Under the pieces are notes generated by a model. That model worked only from the letters and a program-made list of their open reading frames with translations. It was not told the DNA's origin and ran no database searches. Source: a plasmid. Taken from it: a DNA stretch of 64,000 nucleotides. The position numbers and the translations under genes are program-made. Of this stretch, positions 100-27,185 are shown piece after piece (position 1 is the stretch's first letter; each line of letters opens with the position of its first letter). The stretch lies in NCBI RefSeq assembly GCF_056746865.1, contig NZ_JBWKMP010000003.1; one strand, given 5' to 3'.

Positions 100-1460
100 C
101 GTTAATTAACTGGGAAGCGCATCGAGCTAAGTTCCTGGAGTTAAGAGAAGAAACCGGGATCACCATAAAAGAATATTGCGAGCAGCATGACCTCAGCTTT
201 AACACCGCCAGAAAGCATCTCAATATGAAAAAAAATGAGGTTAAGGCGAAAGCTAAGGCTACCGGGAAAAGTACAAAACAGCGCGCAAAAAGCAGCGCCA
301 CCGGCTCAAAAAAAGAGCAAAAAAAGGCTAATAAAAGCACAGAATTTACAAAAACTGACAAATCGTTGGCTGGTGGACGGTTCCGCGCCATGCCGCAAAA
401 ACAAAATGCGGATCACAAAGAAAAGCCAAGTAATAACAACAAGATACACAAGGATGTGAAGGGATCATTTTGTGATGAAATGGGAGAAATGATCCCTAAA
501 AGCAGCGATAAAGCCCAACGAAACAAGGGATCATTGCAAATGATCCCTGATTCATCAGCTCAAAGCACCACTTTGCCTGCCACCAACGTCGCCCGTGAGA
601 TGATGAAGAACGGCGCGACTGAACATTTACGACTTGCGATACAGATGGCGCAGGAACGAGCAATTCAGTATCAGGCTATCGTTGACCAGGAAGCGGAGCG
701 ACTACAGGAAGAGATTGACGCCCTCGGTGATACACAGCCAGAGGGGATGCACCCAGGGCAGCGTCTTCTCGGACTGATCAGCGATGCGGCCTACTACATG
801 AATGACTTTATCACCAGGCTGGCAGCCATCTATCAGAACGAGCAGAAGCTACGCCAGGGGGATGAAAAACTTGCGCAGGGCGCGCGTCAGCAGGCATTCA
901 GGGAGGCTGAGGCCAGAGAAAAACTGGCGATTGCCCGCCTACAAGCCGAGCAGCGTGGCAAGGAGATTGAGTATCGCATTGGCGCTGACGCACGCGCCGC
1001 CAGGGTTATCGCCGCCGCTATACGTATGCGTGAGCGCGAGGAGCTGGATGATATAGGTGTTGCTGAATATATCGAGCGGCAGGGCGTCAGTGTCCCGGCT
1101 ATCCTGGCGGCACGAGCGGCAAAAGCGATCTCACTTCTGGAGCCTCCGGTTTCTGACGTTAACGATGTTGATGATGAGCAACTGGATAAAGAGGCGAAGC
1201 AGTTTGCCGAGCAACAAGCTGGACTCCCACAATGGCTTGCACAACGCCGGGCTGAAGTAGCGAAAATCGTTGATAGGCTTGGGATGGGGGATTACGACCG
1301 GAACGGAGAACGTAAAGCCGGTGAATTTGAGGCCAATGATGAAGACCTGAATATAGACCCTTCCGCGACGGCTGATATCTACGGTGATTATGACGCGGGG
1401 GATACCGGTTTTGATGCTGTAGATGACGAGATTGCGATAGACCAGCCGGAGGATGACTAA
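96..1460 (+). CDS. pacA: terminase small subunit-like DNA-recognition protein (P1 PacA-like)
   Basis: 454 aa. N-terminal HTH-like stretch (ITIKEYCEQHDLSFNTARKHL), a Lys-rich linker and an acidic C-terminus. Stop overlaps the start of the terminase large subunit (TAATGG). GATC-rich inverted repeats sit in its 5' third, as for pac inside P1 pacA. Confidence 0.55.
   Translation: MTLINWEAHRAKFLELREETGITIKEYCEQHDLSFNTARKHLNMKKNEVKAKAKATGKSTKQRAKSSATGSKKEQKKANKSTEFTKTDKSLAGGRFRAMPQKQNADHKEKPSNNNKIHKDVKGSFCDEMGEMIPKSSDKAQRNKGSLQMIPDSSAQSTTLPATNVAREMMKNGATEHLRLAIQMAQERAIQYQAIVDQEAERLQEEIDALGDTQPEGMHPGQRLLGLISDAAYYMNDFITRLAAIYQNEQKLRQGDEKLAQGARQQAFREAEAREKLAIARLQAEQRGKEIEYRIGADARAARVIAAAIRMREREELDDIGVAEYIERQGVSVPAILAARAAKAISLLEPPVSDVNDVDDEQLDKEAKQFAEQQAGLPQWLAQRRAEVAKIVDRLGMGDYDRNGERKAGEFEANDEDLNIDPSATADIYGDYDAGDTGFDAVDDEIAIDQPEDD
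461..548. other. candidate pac (packaging initiation) site: two inverted pairs of AGGGATCATT / AATGATCCCT, giving 4 GATC Dam sites
   Basis: GATC at 464, 491, 529 and 542. Each pair is a perfect 10-bp inverted repeat, with spacers of 17 and 3 nt. The repeats lie inside the pacA-like ORF, matching P1 pac architecture (clustered TGATCA/G hexamers within pacA). Confidence 0.4.
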
Positions 1461-2968
1461 TGGCTGGTGGTCGTAAGATTAAGTGCGTCACCAGTGATCC
1501 ACGTTGGCGCGATATGGTTATCAGGTATCGATACAACTTTACCCAGGCGGTTGTCGATATTTTTGGGATGTTCCCCTCCCACCAGCAGCAGCAGATCATT
1601 CAGTCAGTGCAGGAGACGGGGAGCAGGACGACCGTTACGTCCGGACACGGAACGGGTAAGTCGTCCCTTACCGCGATGTTGCTACTAATTTTTATGATCC
1701 TGTTCCCCGACGCCCGCGTCATTATTGTTGCGAACAAAATAGGCCAGGTAAAAACAGGCGTATTCAAATACGTGAAACAGTTTTGGGCGAATGCTGTTAA
1801 GCGCCACGGCTGGTTACAGACCTATTTTGTCCTGTCTGACACCATGTTTTATGAGCGTTCCCGTAAAGGGATATGGGAAGTGCTCTGTAAAGGTTATCGA
1901 CTCGGTAACGAAGAGGCACTGGCGGGGGAGCACGCGGAGCATTTACTGCTAATCCTTGATGAAGCATCGGGCATATCCGATAAGGCGATTAACGTCATGA
2001 CGGGGGCGTTAACGCAGAAAGATAACCGTATGCTCATGCTTTCCCAGCCTACGCGTCCAAGCGGTTACTTTTATGAATCTCACCATTCAAGGGCAAAGGC
2101 AGAAGGCAATCCGGAAGGTGTCTGGACGGCAATAGTCCTTAACTCTGAAGAATCACCATTCGTTGAACCGAGCTTTATTCGTGAGAAATTGCTGGAGTAC
2201 GGCGGCAGGGATTCGCTGGAGTACATGGTTAAGGTGCTGGGCCAGTTCCCGCGTGCAATTAACGGGTATTTGCTTGGTCGTGATGAGTGCGACCGCGCCG
2301 CACGGCGTAAAGTGTTGCTGGAGAAAGATTGGGGCTGGGTAGCGACCGCTGACGTCGGTAATGGTCGCGATAAATCGGTGCTCAATATATGCAAAGTATC
2401 CGGTTATCGTGAGAAACGACGCGTTGTGAACTTTAAGATACTGGAGATGCCAGGCACTATGGACCCGTTGGCTTTTGCCGACTTTATCTATAACGAATGC
2501 ACTCCTGATAAATACCCGAACATCACCATTGCTGTGGATGCTGATGGCTTTGGTTCAGATACGTGTGCGCAGCTTGTCCGCCGTGGTGCTAATCCCGTTC
2601 GCATCCGTTGGGGTAAGCCTATGTTTGCGCTAAGAGACAGAGAACGCTTTGTCAATCAGCGTGCTTACGCCAATATTATGGCAGGGGATGCCATTAAATC
2701 CGGGCGTATGCGTATCGATAGTGACCCCAAAACCGCAGATCAGGCATCAAAAATCCCGTATATGCTTAACGAAGAAGGGAAGGTAGCGATGATGCGCAAG
2801 GAGCACATGCGGCAGAAGTTAAACATCAAGTCACCGGACAGATGGGATACCTACTGCTTCACTATGCTGGTGGATTACGTGCCTGCTAATGAAGACATTG
2901 GCGCAGAACTCGCAACATTCCGCGATCAGGTGTTGGCAGAAGTGGATATTCCTGATATTGACATTTAA
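1460..2968 (+). CDS. pacB: terminase large subunit (ATPase plus RNase H-like nuclease; P1 PacB-like)
   Basis: 502 aa. Walker A-like VTSGHGTGKSS and Walker B LLLILDEAS. C-terminal nuclease-type acidic motifs ATADVGNGRD and IAVDADGFGS. Translationally coupled to the upstream TerS-like gene. Confidence 0.8.
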   Translation: MAGGRKIKCVTSDPRWRDMVIRYRYNFTQAVVDIFGMFPSHQQQQIIQSVQETGSRTTVTSGHGTGKSSLTAMLLLIFMILFPDARVIIVANKIGQVKTGVFKYVKQFWANAVKRHGWLQTYFVLSDTMFYERSRKGIWEVLCKGYRLGNEEALAGEHAEHLLLILDEASGISDKAINVMTGALTQKDNRMLMLSQPTRPSGYFYESHHSRAKAEGNPEGVWTAIVLNSEESPFVEPSFIREKLLEYGGRDSLEYMVKVLGQFPRAINGYLLGRDECDRAARRKVLLEKDWGWVATADVGNGRDKSVLNICKVSGYREKRRVVNFKILEMPGTMDPLAFADFIYNECTPDKYPNITIAVDADGFGSDTCAQLVRRGANPVRIRWGKPMFALRDRERFVNQRAYANIMAGDAIKSGRMRIDSDPKTADQASKIPYMLNEEGKVAMMRKEHMRQKLNIKSPDRWDTYCFTMLVDYVPANEDIGAELATFRDQVLAEVDIPDIDI

Positions 2969-2990
2969 AAGCCCCGGCGATTCGGGGCTT
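2967..2990. terminator. bidirectional hairpin between convergent pacB and the minus-strand gene
   Basis: AAAAGCCCCGGCGATTCGGGGCTT: 6-bp GC stem with flanking A/T runs on both strands. Confidence 0.5.
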
Positions 2991-3005
2991 GTGGGTGGCT
3001 TGCGA

Positions 3006-4044
3006 TTACCAGAGTTTTGCCGCGTACATCGTTTGTGTGAATGTGTACCCATAGCGTTCTTCAACGCTTTTACCGTATTTTTTCCTGGCTTCAGTAAGGC
3101 GGATGCCTGTCAGGTCATCGCCGGAGGCAATCATAACTTCCAGTAGTTCCAGGTCCATTTTATCCAGCCTTGCCATTGCATCTTTAGCCTCTTGAATTTT
3201 CCGGCTAACGATCTGGTGTATGGCTGGATCGGCTTCGGCCAGCATTTTATCTGATTTGTTTTTTAAACTCTGATTGCGGATATCAATGTTTCTCAGGATA
3301 TATGACTTCACGACGTAGCTTGGCTGCTGCTTTTCCAGATCACGAACCCGATAAAGGTCAAATTCGCCGAGAAGTCCGCACGGAAGCGGTTTAATGCCAG
3401 TGTAAATGGTAAGGGTGCGGCGCTCACCAACGTTGTTAACAACGGGAATCTCTGTGTTTGCTTTTTTTGCAAAGATCAGCGCACCGTGCGTACCCACTCT
3501 GAAGCGTGAAAGTCCATTGTTGCCCTCAATATTGGTGGTAATCACCACATCGGTATAACCTTCTTTTCTTGCGCGGTATACCTCGCCCTCACGTTCAGCG
3601 GCGAAGAATCTGCGTTCTTCTTCAAGCGCACCGACAACCTGTGAAAATATCCTGTTTTTCATGCTTTTCTTTATAGTTTTATCGTATTTTTTCAGCAGGT
3701 CTTCGCGCGTAAATGTTCTCGTTGTGGTTGCGCTTTGCATAACGATGTGCGTACTCTGATTAGTATCCTCAACAATGAATGGGATCGGTAAATAAACCGA
3801 CTCAACAATGTTTGAGGCTTTGTCATCATCCTTGCGACACAGATCAACAAAGGCTTTCCATTCGGCTATGCATTTTTCAGCTTCTTCTAATACAGCCGGA
3901 TCATGTGTTAATGCAACATGGCGAAATTCCTCGCCAACATAACTGGTATCATGGAAAACAGAGTTTGCGACCACCAGCTCTTTCCACCTTTCAGCGGTTT
4001 GCAGGAACCGTTTGTACTCATTCTCGATCGACTTCTTACTCATT
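3006..4044 (-). CDS. hypothetical protein; positional analogue of the P1 c1 immunity repressor (function unproven)
   Basis: 346 aa from the MSKKSIENEY start with AGGAATAATG RBS; the longer track ORF lacks an RBS. Lies between pacB and lox-cre on the opposite strand, as c1 does in P1. Its upstream region carries operator-like TTTTCTAACA motifs. No sequence similarity to P1 C1 could be recalled. Confidence 0.5.
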
Positions 4045-11198: not shown

Positions 11199-11834
11199 TC
11201 AGATATCGGCCTTATTCGGAATTTTATCAGCCACCAGCGGCAATAAAGCCTTCGCCATTTCATGAACCAACATGGCATCAATGACGCCTAGCGTATGGCC
11301 CGGTTTAATGTTTAATGCCGCCTCAAGATGACTCCTTTCCAGGCCGCTTTTCTCGGCTTGTTTATGACGATCTGGTGTAATAACTTCGCCCAAAACGCGG
11401 CTAATTTTTTCTCGTAATTGCTGGGTGCCAGCACACTTGATCGCTGTATCGTGGAGACGGTTAACCAGTTCGCGATAAACATGCGGCTTAATGCGGATAC
11501 GTTCACCGGTGACGCCCTTTCCTGGCGCTGGCACCGAACTATCCGGATAGTTGCCAGCCTCGTAAGCTACCCGCAGCCAGTGCATGAATGTTTCAGTGGA
11601 CACACAACCACAGTCCACATCGATTTTTCCGCGTTGCTGTTCCAGCCACTGCTCAAAATTCAATCTACACGTATTACTTTCATGTTGCTCTTTTTGTCTC
11701 AAGGCCAGCATCTGCTGGGCTATTTCCAATACTTCATCTGCCGTATATCCAGCACCGTGACCATACATTTCGATACGGGAAATAATCTCTGATATACGCT
11801 CTTCAGTGATTCTGGTCATTTCTTTTTGCGCCAT
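11199..11834 (-). CDS. hypothetical protein sharing a ~40-aa module with the DUF4406 protein at 23758..24369
   Basis: 211 aa. KPHVYRELVNRLHDTAIKCAGTQQLREKISRVL resembles APHIYRELVNALRDIAAVYHGTEQLRERLAHTI. Confidence 0.55.
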   Translation of the reverse strand: MAQKEMTRITEERISEIISRIEMYGHGAGYTADEVLEIAQQMLALRQKEQHESNTCRLNFEQWLEQQRGKIDVDCGCVSTETFMHWLRVAYEAGNYPDSSVPAPGKGVTGERIRIKPHVYRELVNRLHDTAIKCAGTQQLREKISRVLGEVITPDRHKQAEKSGLERSHLEAALNIKPGHTLGVIDAMLVHEMAKALLPLVADKIPNKADI

Positions 11835-12187
11835 TTCTTTTCACATTCCTTAGTCCATTTTTCAATGTTCATTTTGGCAATATCAGTCATTCCATCACCT
11901 AAGAAATACTTTTTCCGGTATGTCTTGCACTTAAACCACACTACAACAGCCACCAGCCAGAAAATAAAAGGCCATACAGCAATACCAACGACAGCCGCGA
12001 TAAAGCCCAATAGCCATAAATGAAGCTCTCCAACTTCTGTTTCCGGCAATATTCTTAAAGAATTAAACAGCAGGCTGAACGAATGGTCGTATGCATTGGC
12101 GGTATAAGACATGCAATCCATATAATTAAAGTCATAGCCTGCGGCTGCCGCCCATAATGGGCGGTCAAGAAAATGTTTTAGTGTCAT
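11816..12187 (-). CDS. small membrane protein
   Basis: 123 aa with two hydrophobic helices (WLLGFIAAVVGIAVWPFIFWLVAVVVWF). Confidence 0.45.
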   Translation of the reverse strand: MTLKHFLDRPLWAAAAGYDFNYMDCMSYTANAYDHSFSLLFNSLRILPETEVGELHLWLLGFIAAVVGIAVWPFIFWLVAVVVWFKCKTYRKKYFLGDGMTDIAKMNIEKWTKECEKKWRKKK

Positions 12188-12196
12188 TATATAAAT

Positions 12197-12490
12197 TTAA
12201 GGTTCAGACCAGTTATCTTCAATAGCAATGCTTAATCTTTGTAGCCATTCTGCTAATTTCAGCATTGCTTCTCTTTCGCTTAAACCACGAGGAAAATCAT
12301 CAAGCGAAATTGTTGGCTTGAATCCCCCGCAATTATCCATTTCAACTGTCAGATTTTGTTCCAGCACGGTATTTCTTACGCGGCTATTGTGCCGAAGCAA
12401 ATATACTGAGCGTGATTTATTGGTTTTGTGGTCTAGCTTATATTCGGTAAGTATCATCTGGCTTTTGCCATGATTATTACCTCTCCACAT
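12197..12490 (-). CDS. hypothetical protein
   Basis: 98 aa from MWRGNN, with GAGGT RBS 4 nt upstream. Confidence 0.4.
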   Translation of the reverse strand: MWRGNNHGKSQMILTEYKLDHKTNKSRSVYLLRHNSRVRNTVLEQNLTVEMDNCGGFKPTISLDDFPRGLSEREAMLKLAEWLQRLSIAIEDNWSEP

Positions 12491-12497
12491 ACTTACC

Positions 12498-12620
12498 TCA
12501 CTTAATAAAACAACTCCATGCGTAGTTGATGATTTTTTCCCACGTAATATAAATCTGCACTCCGGCAGTAAAACCAAAGCCAACAATTGCTGAAAAAATC
12601 AAAACATTTACTTTTGACAT
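12498..12620 (-). CDS. small hydrophobic peptide (40 aa)
   Basis: MSKVNVLIFSAIVGFGFTAGVQIYITWEKIINYAWSCFIK. Not in the ORF track because it is under 60 aa. Confidence 0.25.
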   Translation of the reverse strand: MSKVNVLIFSAIVGFGFTAGVQIYITWEKIINYAWSCFIK

Positions 12621-12668
12621 TATAAATTTTCTCTCGGTGTCGTAGGTGATAGCACCATAATTGATAAT

Positions 12669-12902
12669 TTAGTGAGTTAGCAGTTCCATTTTTTTGATGA
12701 TTTCCGCATGAGCATCATCGTTATCAACACTTAGCTCGTTTAATGCTTCTCGCACTACATCAACTTCTTCAGGCTGAAAGAAGTCGTCGCGGTAATCACC
12801 AAATAGAACCGAAACCAGCCTGCCACCAGCAACATCAAGATTGGCGCTAACAGGTGGCTCTTTGCCATCCTCAAATTCGACTACAAAAGTTAATTTTCCC
12901 AT
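12669..12902 (-). CDS. hypothetical acidic protein
   Basis: 77-aa ORF. Confidence 0.45.
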   Translation of the reverse strand: MGKLTFVVEFEDGKEPPVSANLDVAGGRLVSVLFGDYRDDFFQPEEVDVVREALNELSVDNDDAHAEIIKKMELLTH

Positions 12903-24640: not shown

Positions 24641-25216
24641 ATGAAGCAAAGCTATTGGGAGAAACAGACACAAAAAGCCCTGCAAAAACTGGCTGATCCG
24701 AAATGGCGGGAGGAACAAAGGGCAAAGCGTCTTCAGCAAGCTCAACGCCAGCAGCAGCGTGCGCGAGAAAAAGCCGCATCGCCTGAATATCGGCAAAAGA
24801 AAATTGAAAAAGCGAAGCAATATGAACAGCGAAGAAAAGAGAAGGCCGCTTCTGCTCCTGTCAAAAAAACTCGCGCGTCACGCGGCCTGAAAGGCAGAAC
24901 ACTCACAGCAGATGAGCGCCGGATACAAACTGCCATCGGTGCTCTCCCCTGCATTGCCTGCCATATGCACGGACAGCATAGCCCTGTGGTATCCCTGCAC
25001 CACATCTTCGGGAGAACAGCAGAAAACGCGCATAAATACGTCCTCCCTTTGTGTAAATGGCACCATCAACACGCAGCGCCAGCAGAGATCCGCGAGCAAT
25101 ACCCCTGGTTGGTTCCTGTTCATGCTGATGGAAAAATAGGCGGCAAAGCAGATTTCAGGCGGCACAATGCTGATGAAATGACGTTGTATCAGATGGTGAC
25201 TGAATTAATAAATTAA
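24641..25216 (+). CDS. ref: Ref-like HNH endonuclease (P1 recombination enhancement function type)
   Basis: 191 aa from MKQSYWEK (a TTG-initiated extension is also possible). Highly basic, disordered N-terminus. C-terminal Zn/HNH-like pattern LPCIACHMHGQH...LHHIFGR...CKWHHQH. Located downstream of the operator, in a P1-like context. Confidence 0.5.
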   Translation: MKQSYWEKQTQKALQKLADPKWREEQRAKRLQQAQRQQQRAREKAASPEYRQKKIEKAKQYEQRRKEKAASAPVKKTRASRGLKGRTLTADERRIQTAIGALPCIACHMHGQHSPVVSLHHIFGRTAENAHKYVLPLCKWHHQHAAPAEIREQYPWLVPVHADGKIGGKADFRRHNADEMTLYQMVTELIN

Positions 25217-25229
25217 TTTTCTAACATTT
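25208..25229. promoter_or_regulatory. operator-like motif copy (TAAATTAATTTTCTAACATTTT)
   Basis: Near-identical to the copy after cre. Confidence 0.4.
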
Positions 25230-25547
25230 TAAGTTGAATTGTGAAATTCGCCGTTGTACATTCACAACCGATTGGTACACCGGTCAACTTTTTGAGACAA
25301 ACCGTTTGGTTTTTCGTATGATTGCCGCCGCCATACCAATGGCGGTGCAATATAGGTGGCTGAAAAGCCCCCGTTGACTCACGGTGTTCCAACCTTTATT
25401 GCGCCGCCACCAGACCGTGGAACAGTCGATGGCGGCTCCGAAAGCAAGGAGTCACTACACTATGAACAGCTACTGTCTTTTCCCATCACTCGTTATCCGC
25501 CACTCACGCGATAATCTGCATTCTTTACTCGCGCTGGGGGTGTCAAA

Positions 25548-25715
25548 ATGACCGTTCGCTATCTCAACTTTCAAATCCAGAACATCACTGGCGGTTGCTA
25601 TGACTGGTTTGTCACTCTCGGAAAAGAAGTGATCACCGGGAAGCTGGATGAAGTGAAAGCTAAAGCAATGGCCTACGCCTGCAAGCAAGCCCAAAAGAAG
25701 AAAAGAAAAGCATAA
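25548..25715 (+). CDS. small basic-tailed ORF (55 aa)
   Basis: MTVRYLNFQIQNITGGCYDWFVTLGKEVITGKLDEVKAKAMAYACKQAQKKKRKA, with GGGGG RBS and followed by a terminator. Below the ORF-track cutoff. Confidence 0.3.
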   Translation: MTVRYLNFQIQNITGGCYDWFVTLGKEVITGKLDEVKAKAMAYACKQAQKKKRKA

Positions 25716-25828
25716 GAAAACACACAGTTGCGCCCTGGCATTATCGTGGGGTATATTTCTACGGCACCTTAGAAAAACGGGTGCCGGGATTGGAACCCCG
25801 GATAATGTCAAAGGCGACACAGACGCCG

Positions 25829-25855
25829 AACGCGTCTTTTTTTGTGTCATGCCAT
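25829..25855 (+). terminator. rho-independent terminator (GACGC-CGAAC-GCGTC plus T7)
   Basis: 5-bp GC stem followed by TTTTTTT. Confidence 0.45.
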
Positions 25856-25879
25856 CGCACAGCCATACTTAGCGTTTAG

Positions 25880-26020
25880 CTCAGAGATCAATGGTAGTGC
25901 TGGCTGGGCTGCCGAAAGGCAGGCCGGTTCCCTTTGACGCCGGTAGTTCCAACCCAGTCAGTGCTACCGCCATTGAGATTGGAACCTCACGCGGTAGCTC
26001 CTTAACTTAGTCAAAGGAGG
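25880..26020 (+). ncRNA. candidate c4-like antisense RNA region upstream of icd/ant-like genes
   Basis: Non-coding 150 bp with a tRNA-like TAGCTCAGAG...GGTAGTGC segment. Mutually complementary short elements (GGTTCC/GTTCCAACC versus GATTGGAACC x2) sit upstream of the icd-like start, as for P1 c4 a'/b' pairing with ant mRNA. Confidence 0.25.
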
Positions 26021-26028
26021 CTGCCAAT

Positions 26029-26244
26029 ATGGCTACTATCCCTACCCCAACTCATTCTGAATTTATCTGGCGTTTCTATTCCTGCCAAAAACACCTTTAT
26101 ATCTGCGTAATGGCTGCTACCGAAGCAGAGGCGCGCTCATACCTTCCCGAAGAACCCTGCATTTTTGCTGCTCGCTTCACTCTTGATGCGATGGAGATCC
26201 TCAATTACTGGAATCTGCCAATGAACTGCGTGGAGGTGCACTGA
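26029..26244 (+). CDS. small ORF overlapping the antirepressor start (P1 icd-like position)
   Basis: 71 aa with GGAGG RBS. Its stop overlaps the ATG of the Ant-like gene (TGATGA). Confidence 0.4.
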   Translation: MATIPTPTHSEFIWRFYSCQKHLYICVMAATEAEARSYLPEEPCIFAARFTLDAMEILNYWNLPMNCVEVH

Positions 26245-27185
26245 TGAATCTGTCCATCTCTCAAAAAGCGACAATGACCAGCATTGAGATCGCGGAACTG
26301 GTAGGAAGTCGCCCAGATAGTGTGAAGAGAACTATCGAAACACTGGCTAAAAAGAGTGTGATTCAATTTCCACAATCTGTGGAAATTGAAAATAAACAAT
26401 CAGTTGGCCCTCGTCGATTTTCCAAGGCTTACATCTTTGAAGGCGAACAAGGAAAACGAGACAGCATCATTGTCGTCGCGCAGCTCTCTCCGGAATTTAC
26501 CGCCCGGCTGGTGGACCGCTGGCGCGAACTGGAGAATGCCCGGGTACAGTTAAAATCCAAAGCCGAAATCCTGGCCGAAATGGCGCAAATGCATCTTGAG
26601 CATGAACGCCGGATCAACGCCGTTAATGCCCAGGTAGCCGAAGTATCGGCACAAGTGTCCAGGGTCACCGAAACACTTGAGCAGATCAAGAAAGGCAATA
26701 TTCCAGAAGGCTACATTGGCTATCGCCAGTTGGCGGCAAAATGCGGCCTGACTGAAGCCAAATGCCGCAACCTGGTCAACGCTTACCGGATACCCACTGA
26801 TACGCATGAGTTTTTAACTCCCGACGGTTTGCTTGCGCGACGCTCCATTGTGGCCCTGGCCCCCTTCCGGAAAGCCTTTAAGCAGGTTATGTCGGAGGCA
26901 GAACCACGTAACAAACGCTGGTATCATCCCAGGATGGGGCTATTTCAGGCCATTCACCATCCTGTGCCTGAAAGTCCAAAGGCAAACCTGTCGTTGCATA
27001 CCGCCAGAGAGAAGATTAAAACAGGGTATGCAACCGTATGCCGTCGAGCATCCTGGCCTGAAAGTGTCTGGGTATGGCCCGAAAGAGGCTCACGGAAAAA
27101 CTGGCGCACCATTCGCGACGGCAAGATCTGTGCGATTGATTTACAGCCAGAAGATGTAGCAGCGACCGACTGGATTGTTAGTTAA
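26244..27185 (+). CDS. Rha-family phage regulatory protein / antirepressor-like
   Basis: 313 aa. N-terminal TMTSIEIAELVGSRPDSVKRTIETLAKK resembles the Rha/Ant N-domain; there is a central coiled coil. Confidence 0.5.
   Translation: MNLSISQKATMTSIEIAELVGSRPDSVKRTIETLAKKSVIQFPQSVEIENKQSVGPRRFSKAYIFEGEQGKRDSIIVVAQLSPEFTARLVDRWRELENARVQLKSKAEILAEMAQMHLEHERRINAVNAQVAEVSAQVSRVTETLEQIKKGNIPEGYIGYRQLAAKCGLTEAKCRNLVNAYRIPTDTHEFLTPDGLLARRSIVALAPFRKAFKQVMSEAEPRNKRWYHPRMGLFQAIHHPVPESPKANLSLHTAREKIKTGYATVCRRASWPESVWVWPERGSRKNWRTIRDGKICAIDLQPEDVAATDWIVS

Follow-up and report, generated by a model that had tools for sequence, protein, structure and literature searches.

In the GenBank record of bacteriophage P1, the immunity region immI is annotated with the sites a1 and b1, the 77-nt C4 RNA, the sites a2 and b2 ('repression of icd ant translation') and the genes icd and ant1/ant2, and Icd is described as 'apparently required for expression of ant'. 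RNase P cuts the c4 precursor at a GGW motif, and a summary of how the a' and b' loops act is available (PMC5320573). The CI RNA of satellite phage P4 is processed and flanked by complementary sites, and the IsrK RNA of the Salmonella prophage Gifsy-1 ends at its own terminator and activates translation of a small open reading frame (ORF) and an antirepressor in trans (PMC4825925). For a D6-like plasmid, homologues of c4, icd and the antirepressor gene have already been reported together with a second c4-icd region (PMC6799933). The locus described here lies in a 64,000-nt stretch of the plasmid contig NZ_JBWKMP010000003.1 (hereafter the window), where a first-pass annotation made from the letters alone had proposed the logic of P1 immI, i.e. 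a c4-type antisense RNA followed by an icd-like ORF whose end overlaps an antirepressor-type gene. This proposal was borne out with strong backing from covariation, and we put the probability at about 0.88 that the locus represents the immI operon of a D6-like plasmid prophage of the P1 family, with RNA parts and icd homologous to those of P1 immI.

The window is a D6-like plasmid prophage of the P1 family. Over the 2.2 kb that surround the locus it shares 99.7% identity with the E. coli plasmid NZ_LR890273.1 and 91% with phage D6, itself a P1-family plasmid prophage. Matches to this region were obtained in 455 plasmid records; 399 of these are non-mobilizable, and many are around 90 kb long. 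In D6 the region is annotated as ref, orf86, orf85, 'host cell division inhibitor Icd-like protein', 'anti-repressor Ant' and pmgF. Because this annotation covers icd and ant, and the published description of D6-like elements covers c4, icd and the antirepressor, the locus is not new but an ordinary immI operon.

The first-pass annotation had placed a c4-type RNA in the non-coding stretch before icd, and such an RNA gene is present there (Table 1). It matches the Rfam family C4 (RF01695) with 77.1 bits (cut-off 45) over model positions 1-87 of 87. Its minimum-energy fold of -46.5 kcal/mol, which is 5.0 standard deviations under the shuffle mean (z -5.0), agrees with the C4 architecture of a long closing stem, two internal hairpins and an unpaired junction, and this architecture is supported by compensatory changes. 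The ends of the mature RNA were placed by aligning to the annotated 77-nt P1 C4, and a GGU is visible at position 25893, at the predicted 5' end. The hairpin-2 loop is the element b' (25931-38, CCTTTGAC, in RNA form CCUUUGAC) and the junction is the element a' (25946-52, GTTCCAA). When the whole window was scanned with Rfam at curated thresholds there were exactly two matches, C4 and isrK, both within this locus. On another contig (L043) two identical c4 copies were observed at 1359..1446 and 2925..3012, 1566 nt apart, which suggests a duplicated cassette.

The second Rfam match is a leader RNA upstream of c4, which fits isrK (RF01394) with 61.3 bits (cut-off 50) over model positions 1-77 of 77 and folds with a z of -2.5 relative to shuffles. 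The Rfam family c4-a1b1 (RF03163), for which P1 scores 51 bits, did not reach its cut-off of 46.7 in the window (22.4 bits at 25751..25804), so by family score the leader is of the isrK type and not of the P1 c4-a1b1 type. The same combination of isrK and C4 was found in D6 and in an Stx2 phage, P1 has c4-a1b1 and C4, and all three models match in Gifsy-1 (Rfam scans). The leader carries a1 (TTGGAAC, 25790-96) within its hairpin-2 loop and b1 (GTCAAAGG) at 25807-14, and its 3' end is formed by an intrinsic terminator at 25821-42, consisting of a 6-pair stem (25821..25837) followed by TTTTTTT. The clean terminator noted earlier thus exists, but it is the end of the unit's own a1/b1 leader and not a boundary before the unit.

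In the non-coding stretch the first-pass annotation had also seen a tRNA-like segment. The segment in question, TAGCTCAGAG, does look like a tRNA D-arm, which would fit a degenerate tRNA or a tRNA-derived attachment remnant. However, neither ARAGORN nor the Rfam scan at gathering level found a tRNA in the window, and TAGCTCAGAG is merely variable leader sequence 5' of c4 that is absent in two groups of relatives (those of L007 and L036), which makes a tRNA origin hardly conceivable.

The a' segment GUUCCAA pairs exactly, over 7 nt, with UUGGAAC at both a1 and a2, and the b' segment CCUUUGAC pairs exactly, over 8 nt, with GUCAAAGG at both b1 and b2. The site b2 overlaps the Shine-Dalgarno sequence of icd (AAGGAGG, 26014-20), whose ATG is at 26029. 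Each of the four matches was obtained in 0.5-1.2% of shuffled sequences, and all four jointly in 0/20000. Of the complementary elements listed previously, the pair GTTCCAA/TTGGAAC (the latter twice) is real, but 'GGTTCC' stays constant when the targets change in relatives and is no recognition element, and the pair CCTTTGAC/GTCAAAGG (again twice), which covers the Shine-Dalgarno sequence, had been missed. Calculated energies of the duplexes between c4 and its targets were uninformative because the program unfolded the c4 stem.

The pairing was examined by covariation in 80 loci encoding Icd (IMG/VR), for which the 300 nt upstream of icd were aligned; the counts are based on 37 loci with 32 distinct sequences. 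Among the 27 pairs in the three c4 stems, 99.6-100% of the cells were paired and 13 pairs were changed on both sides. The helix between a' and a2 (7 pairs, 5 of them covarying) and that between b' and b2 (8 pairs, 4 covarying) were both 100% paired. For the c4 stems and these two helices taken together 99.9% of the cells were paired and 22 pairs were changed on both sides; the covariation score was reached by 0/500 shuffles, and sliding the partner dropped the paired cells to 26-50%. The leader sites obey the same rule, with 99.6% pairing for a1:a' and 100% for b1:b' (99.8% overall, with two-sided changes in 9 pairs). The three copies of an element thus change together, with two-sided changes at 18 helix positions, and the test named beforehand as a possible refutation, homologues lacking the element pairs, did not refute the proposal.

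At least four alleles of 'a' and three of 'b' occur, in mixed combinations. Written as leader site / c4 segment / icd-leader site, the a alleles are UUGGAAC / GUUCCAA / UUGGAAC in the window, UUGAGAC / GUCUCAA / UUGAGAC in D6, UUGGUCU / AGACCAA / UUGGUCU in the L007 group, UUGGCCU / AGGCCAA / UUGGUCU (with one G-U pair) in the L036 group, UUAGGAC / GUCCUAA / UUAGGAC in an Stx2 phage and UUGACAG / CUGUCAA / UUGACAG in P1. The b alleles are GUCAAAGG / CCUUUGAC / GUCAAAGG in the window, GCAAAAGG / CCUUUUGC / GCAAAAGG in D6 and GUCUAAGG / CCUUGGAC / GUCUAAGG in the L036 group. The a alleles of the window and D6 are found combined with the b alleles of the window and D6 in all four possible ways (4/4). 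Across 25740..26250 the window and D6 are 95% identical, and most of the differences lie in the six elements and are compensatory. Such naturally swapped alleles provide covariation that is unusually clear for an interaction between RNA molecules, and they place the a1/b1 sites under the same pairing constraint as the real targets, which points to a regulatory role of the leader RNA.

The covariation also bears on the current annotation of the c4 gene. In NZ_LR890273.1 the RefSeq pipeline PGAP gives the name 'ash family protein' to a coding sequence (25891..26010 in the window) that coincides with c4. A small protein of the Ash family would agree with the 39-aa translation, which scores above the cut-off of Pfam PF10554 (Phage_ASH, 32.2 vs 26 bits), with the name given by PGAP and with a reading frame that remains open in variants. 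It is nevertheless very improbable: the 13 stem pairs that are changed on both sides keep the RNA pairing while the amino-acid sequence changes radically, the P1 C4 is an experimentally defined RNA of 77 nt, and the translation has no NCBIfam match. Because the variants keep the RNA pairs while the amino acids change radically, the coding sequence is best interpreted as a conceptual translation of the c4 RNA gene, and PF10554 appears to be a family that captures translations of c4 and CI RNA genes.

Downstream of c4 the 71-aa icd ORF overlaps the 313-aa ORF as previously described, in the sequence TGATG (26242-46), and GGAGG lies 7 nt upstream of the ant start. The window Icd is 56% identical to P1 Icd, passes the NCBIfam model phage_ICD_like (NF033153) with 49.4 bits against 25 and matches PHROG 1426 (E 4e-41). 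The earlier statement that the locus reproduces P1 immI with unrelated sequence therefore fails for the RNA, which is a full-length Rfam C4 match, and for Icd, and it holds for Ant (BLASTP E 0.38 against P1 Ant1). Judged by sequence, c4 and icd are true homologues of those of P1 and not an independent reinvention, and the RNA switch and icd have been conserved while the cargo protein, Ant, has been swapped relative to P1.

Two candidate promoters precede the operon. The -10 element of the one at 25728..25757 aligns with the annotated -10 of P1 P1c4, its TTGCGC and TAT..T are kept in diverged relatives, and its predicted start coincides with the start of the isrK model; a motif scan of the window gave no operator-like site near it. 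In the other candidate (25234..25262), the hexamers TTGA.. and TA.ATT are kept in relatives with diverged flanks. The operator copy reported by the first-pass annotation probably corresponds to the operator-like site at 25210..25227 beside this second promoter; such a site is present, but about 340 bp upstream of where the unit had been said to begin. A promoter-like sequence on the minus strand (TTGGCA-17-TAAATT, 26088..26060, within icd) was also observed as a consensus match only; RNA from it would be antisense to the 5' end of icd and to c4.

The operator-like motif is of a D6 type. The P1 C1 operator consensus had no match in the window at ≤3 mismatches, while AAATTAATTTTCTAACA occurs in 12 copies at ≤4 mismatches against 0.76 expected from shuffles, often as inverted pairs, one of which is directly in front of ref. 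The minus strand encodes a distant homologue of P1 C1 at 3333..4025 (tblastn E 1e-5, with 21% identity over 241 aa). Two of the operator-like copies flank this gene, with sites just upstream of it, and the region is likely to be immC.

Table 1. Features of the immI locus and of related sites in the window (positions in the 64,000-nt stretch).
Feature	Position	Strand	Basis or remark
Operator-like motif copies	4055, 4340, 5451, 19489/19503, 24565/24579, 25210, 35919/35933, 45345, 45393		
D6-type C1 operator-like site AAATTAATTTTCTAACAT	25210..25227	+	Putative; motif match
Candidate operator-proximal promoter TTGAAT-17-TACATT	25234..25262	+	Putative analogue of P1 P51a, by position
Leader of upstream module: hairpin with ATTGGTACACC (25271-81), GTCAAC (25283-88), T-run	25268..25300	+	Candidate a1/b1-type sites
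Candidate second c4-like antisense RNA, c4up	25335..25414	+	Near-threshold Rfam C4, fold, conservation, context
Candidate c4up targets TGGAACA (25419-25) and GAGTCA (25448-53)	25419..25453	+	Perfect complements
29-aa leader ORF	25462..25551	+	Stop overlaps next start as ATGA
55-aa ORF, putative cargo of upstream module	25548..25715	+	PHROG 7786 (unknown function), E 9e-42
Candidate constitutive promoter TTGCGC-18-TATATT	25728..25757	+	Analogue of P1 P1c4/P51b; predicted start ~25764
isrK-type a1/b1 leader RNA	25764..25842	+	Rfam isrK RF01394, terminator scan, a1/b1 covariation
c4 antisense RNA gene	25887..25974	+	Rfam C4; mature RNA predicted at ~25893..25971, starting at GGU
c4 targets in icd leader: a2 TTGGAAC (25979-85) and b2 GTCAAAGG (26010-17)	25979..26020	+	Exact complements, covariation
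icd, 71 aa	26029..26244	+	Homologue of P1 cell-division inhibitor; leader ORF for ant
ant, 313 aa	26244..27185	+	Putative antirepressor, Rha/Roi-type N-terminal domain

From these parts we infer the following course of events, in which processing, translational repression, coupling and any Rho-dependent polarity are carried over from related systems. Transcription would start near 25764 from the promoter without a nearby operator, and most transcripts would stop at the terminator, giving an isrK-type RNA of about 79 nt with a1 and b1. Transcripts that read through would carry the c4 precursor, which, by homology to P1, would be cut by RNase P at the GGU at 25893 to yield c4 at a length of about 79 nt. 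Its a' and b' segments would then pair with a2 and b2 in the icd leader, b' would cover the ribosome-binding site and icd would remain untranslated. With the ant start overlapping the icd stop and ant depending on icd translation, ant would be silent and the prophage repressed. The operator-proximal promoter would add transcription once C1 repression is lifted, the a1/b1 leader RNA would most likely compete for c4 as a decoy (titration), in keeping with the activation by IsrK in Gifsy-1, and Ant would presumably inactivate the D6-type C1.

The role of the leader RNA may be viewed differently, following the published model for IsrK in Gifsy-1, in which the long transcript adopts a translationally inactive fold and access to the ribosome-binding site of the small ORF is provided by the short leader RNA, which acts in trans on the mRNA itself; c4-type repression would then be secondary. 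The window leader is a full-length member of the isrK family, and trans activation and two alternative structures are supported by experiments in Gifsy-1 (PMC4825925). In the window, the 3' strand of the c4 closing stem (25963..25970) is complementary to 25991..25998, just after a2, so that an alternative fold is possible, and this pairing could put a2 in a hairpin loop of the unprocessed transcript. On the other hand, the Gifsy-1 'orf45'/STnc1160 region downstream of isrK (L086, 34131..34316, minus strand) is itself a full-length C4 homologue with 69 bits, the leader sites covary with the c4 loops and not with the mRNA, so that leader-c4 pairing explains the same data, and the alternative helix has one covarying pair only, for which reason we do not claim it. 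This model is therefore somewhat unlikely for the window. Given that Gifsy-1 'orf45' is a C4 homologue and that a1 and b1 covary, leader RNA acting as a decoy for c4 is the most economical and most likely reading, and the published activation by IsrK may itself act through c4.

Several observations weigh against the immI reading as a whole or against parts of it. Transcript ends, processing and repression are inferred for this element. Neither of the two candidate promoters was listed by a consensus promoter scan, and the operator-like site at 25210..25227 lies 6 nt outside the candidate -35 and not over it. In one relative (L037, IMG/VR contig 2778261639_000014) a1 is of the D6 type while a' and a2 are of the window type; this locus is a natural recombinant and the sole mismatch among the 32 distinct sequences, and it follows that a1 pairing is not strictly required. 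Finally, Ant shows no similarity to either of the antirepressors with experimental support, P1 Ant1/2 (the E value against Ant1 is given above) and Gifsy-1 AnrP, and its match to Pfam PF09669 (Phage_pRha, residues 11-98, full model) reaches 26.4 bits, under the cut-off of 29.9.

The last of these points raises the question of whether the 313-aa protein could be a DNA-binding regulator of the Rha/Roi type with another role in the lytic cycle (transcriptional control or host interference) and not an antirepressor. Over residues 1-103 it shares about 65% identity with the Roi DNA-binding proteins of Stx phages, there are weak helix-turn-helix matches, and RefSeq names close relatives 'Rha family transcriptional regulator'; the lack of similarity to P1 Ant1 and AnrP points the same way. 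Neither a Pfam ANT/KilAC domain nor a related solved structure was found for the protein. Against such a role, the ORF occupies the ant position of a conserved c4-icd operon, residues 2-313 match PHROG 63 'anti-repressor Ant' with E 3.5e-58 (profile positions 124-431 of 431; the name of this family comes from annotation and not from a tested function), and plasmids of this type carry a 67% identical paralogue in a second c4-icd cassette. We consider a role other than antirepressor quite unlikely and retain the putative antirepressor.

No second copy of icd or ant was present within the window. Beyond it, a third immI-like cassette was observed beside repL at 11689..12874 of NZ_LR890273.1, with a P1-type c4-a1b1 leader (53.9 bits), a C4 match (70 bits), icd and a Rha-family protein. 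This protein is the Ant paralogue mentioned above and passes the Pfam Rha model with 36.7 bits, and the cassette has yet another a allele, UUAGCAG/CUGCUAA.

Upstream of the isrK-type leader lies a candidate second c4-like RNA, here called c4up. It scored 42.3 bits with the Rfam C4 model (E 5.5e-7), just under the cut-off, and 44.5 bits with a model of our own, R1 (E 6e-8). Its minimum-energy fold has the c4 architecture (z -5.3), and it was found in 119 plasmids, nearly invariant where the flanks have diverged. Covariation among its 6 distinct sequences gave 96% pairing and no pair changed on both sides, and c4up remains a candidate on the basis of fold, conservation and context. The layout of this upstream module is that of the main module. 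Read from the sequence, the possible a1/b1-type sites in its leader pair with unpaired c4up segments at 9/10 and 6/6 positions, which makes them weaker complements than the downstream targets, and the leader hairpin, which is at the predicted start of the transcript, was flagged as terminator-like, but is weak (-6 kcal/mol, z -0.3). The c4up junction and hairpin-2 loop are perfectly complementary, over 7 nt and 6 nt, to the candidate targets, which correspond in relative position to a2 and b2 of the main module and are invariant in all relatives; TGGAACA is just 3' of c4up, and GAGTCA lies on a Shine-Dalgarno sequence (AAGGAG, 25445-50).

The 29-aa ORF that follows had no family match in PHROG or NCBIfam; its start codon and Shine-Dalgarno sequence are conserved, and the spacing between them varies by 3-5 nt. 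Among phage records the 55-aa ORF occurs in D6 only. In two plasmids c4up is followed by a 61-aa Icd-like ORF and then by a homologue of the 55-aa ORF, and in L088 a 61-aa Icd-like ORF begins at the same ATG as the 29-aa leader ORF. In one plasmid (L090) c4up and the 55-aa ORF are present without the c4-icd-ant unit, and the two units are therefore separate cassettes. The c4up RNA with its 55-aa cargo appears to be a small, unannotated lead.

A wider picture, for which we would give slightly less than even odds, is that D6-like prophages run a multi-channel RNA immunity in which c4up is a second gate, the a and b elements are exchangeable address codes and the a1/b1 leader is a decoy. If this were true, c4up would gate the short leader ORF and the 55-aa protein directly behind the C1 operator, and the decoy would give a function to the long-unexplained a1/b1 sites of P1 and reinterpret the activation by IsrK in Gifsy-1. 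For annotation the consequence is a correction, as this is a standard P1-type immI operon in which the RefSeq 'ash family protein' is the c4 gene. Judging from the allele differences, plasmid prophages that are close relatives may differ in immI specificity, and this would bear on which of them can coexist or superinfect. Three leads remain, namely c4up and its 55-aa cargo, the recognition alleles in their mixed combinations, and the a1/b1 leader as a likely decoy.

Among the closest known systems, immI of P1 and P7 resembles the locus in organisation. The order a1, b1, c4, a2, b2 over the icd ribosome-binding site and icd overlapping ant is the same, the c4 RNAs belong to one Rfam family, Icd is 56% identical and the window aligns element by element; as between P1 and P7, few bases in the loops and targets set the specificity. 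The locus differs from P1 immI in that its Ant is unlike P1 Ant1 and has no nested ant2 in the window, its leader is of the isrK type and not of the c4-a1b1 type (22 vs 51 bits with the latter model), its operator motif is specific to D6, its neighbours are ref and pmgF instead of sim and kilA-repL, and it has an extra c4-like module upstream. The immunity region of satellite phage P4 (seqA, CI RNA, seqC) shares with it a CI RNA region that is 73% identical to the c4 region (H40), but P4 immunity results in premature termination of the transcription of replication genes and lacks an icd-ant cargo. The isrK-orf45-anrP region of Gifsy-1 in Salmonella likewise has an isrK leader with a terminator, followed by a C4 homologue and an antirepressor, whereas it is without icd, AnrP (187 aa) is unrelated to the window Ant and the published model is without a c4-type repressor. 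With D6 and D6-like prophages such as pYU39_89 it is one locus, 91% identical over 2.2 kb and with the same order of ref, orf86, orf85, icd and ant; here the differences are the recognition alleles, UUGGAAC/GUCAAAGG in the window and UUGAGAC/GCAAAAGG in D6, and an Ant that is 85% identical to its D6 counterpart.

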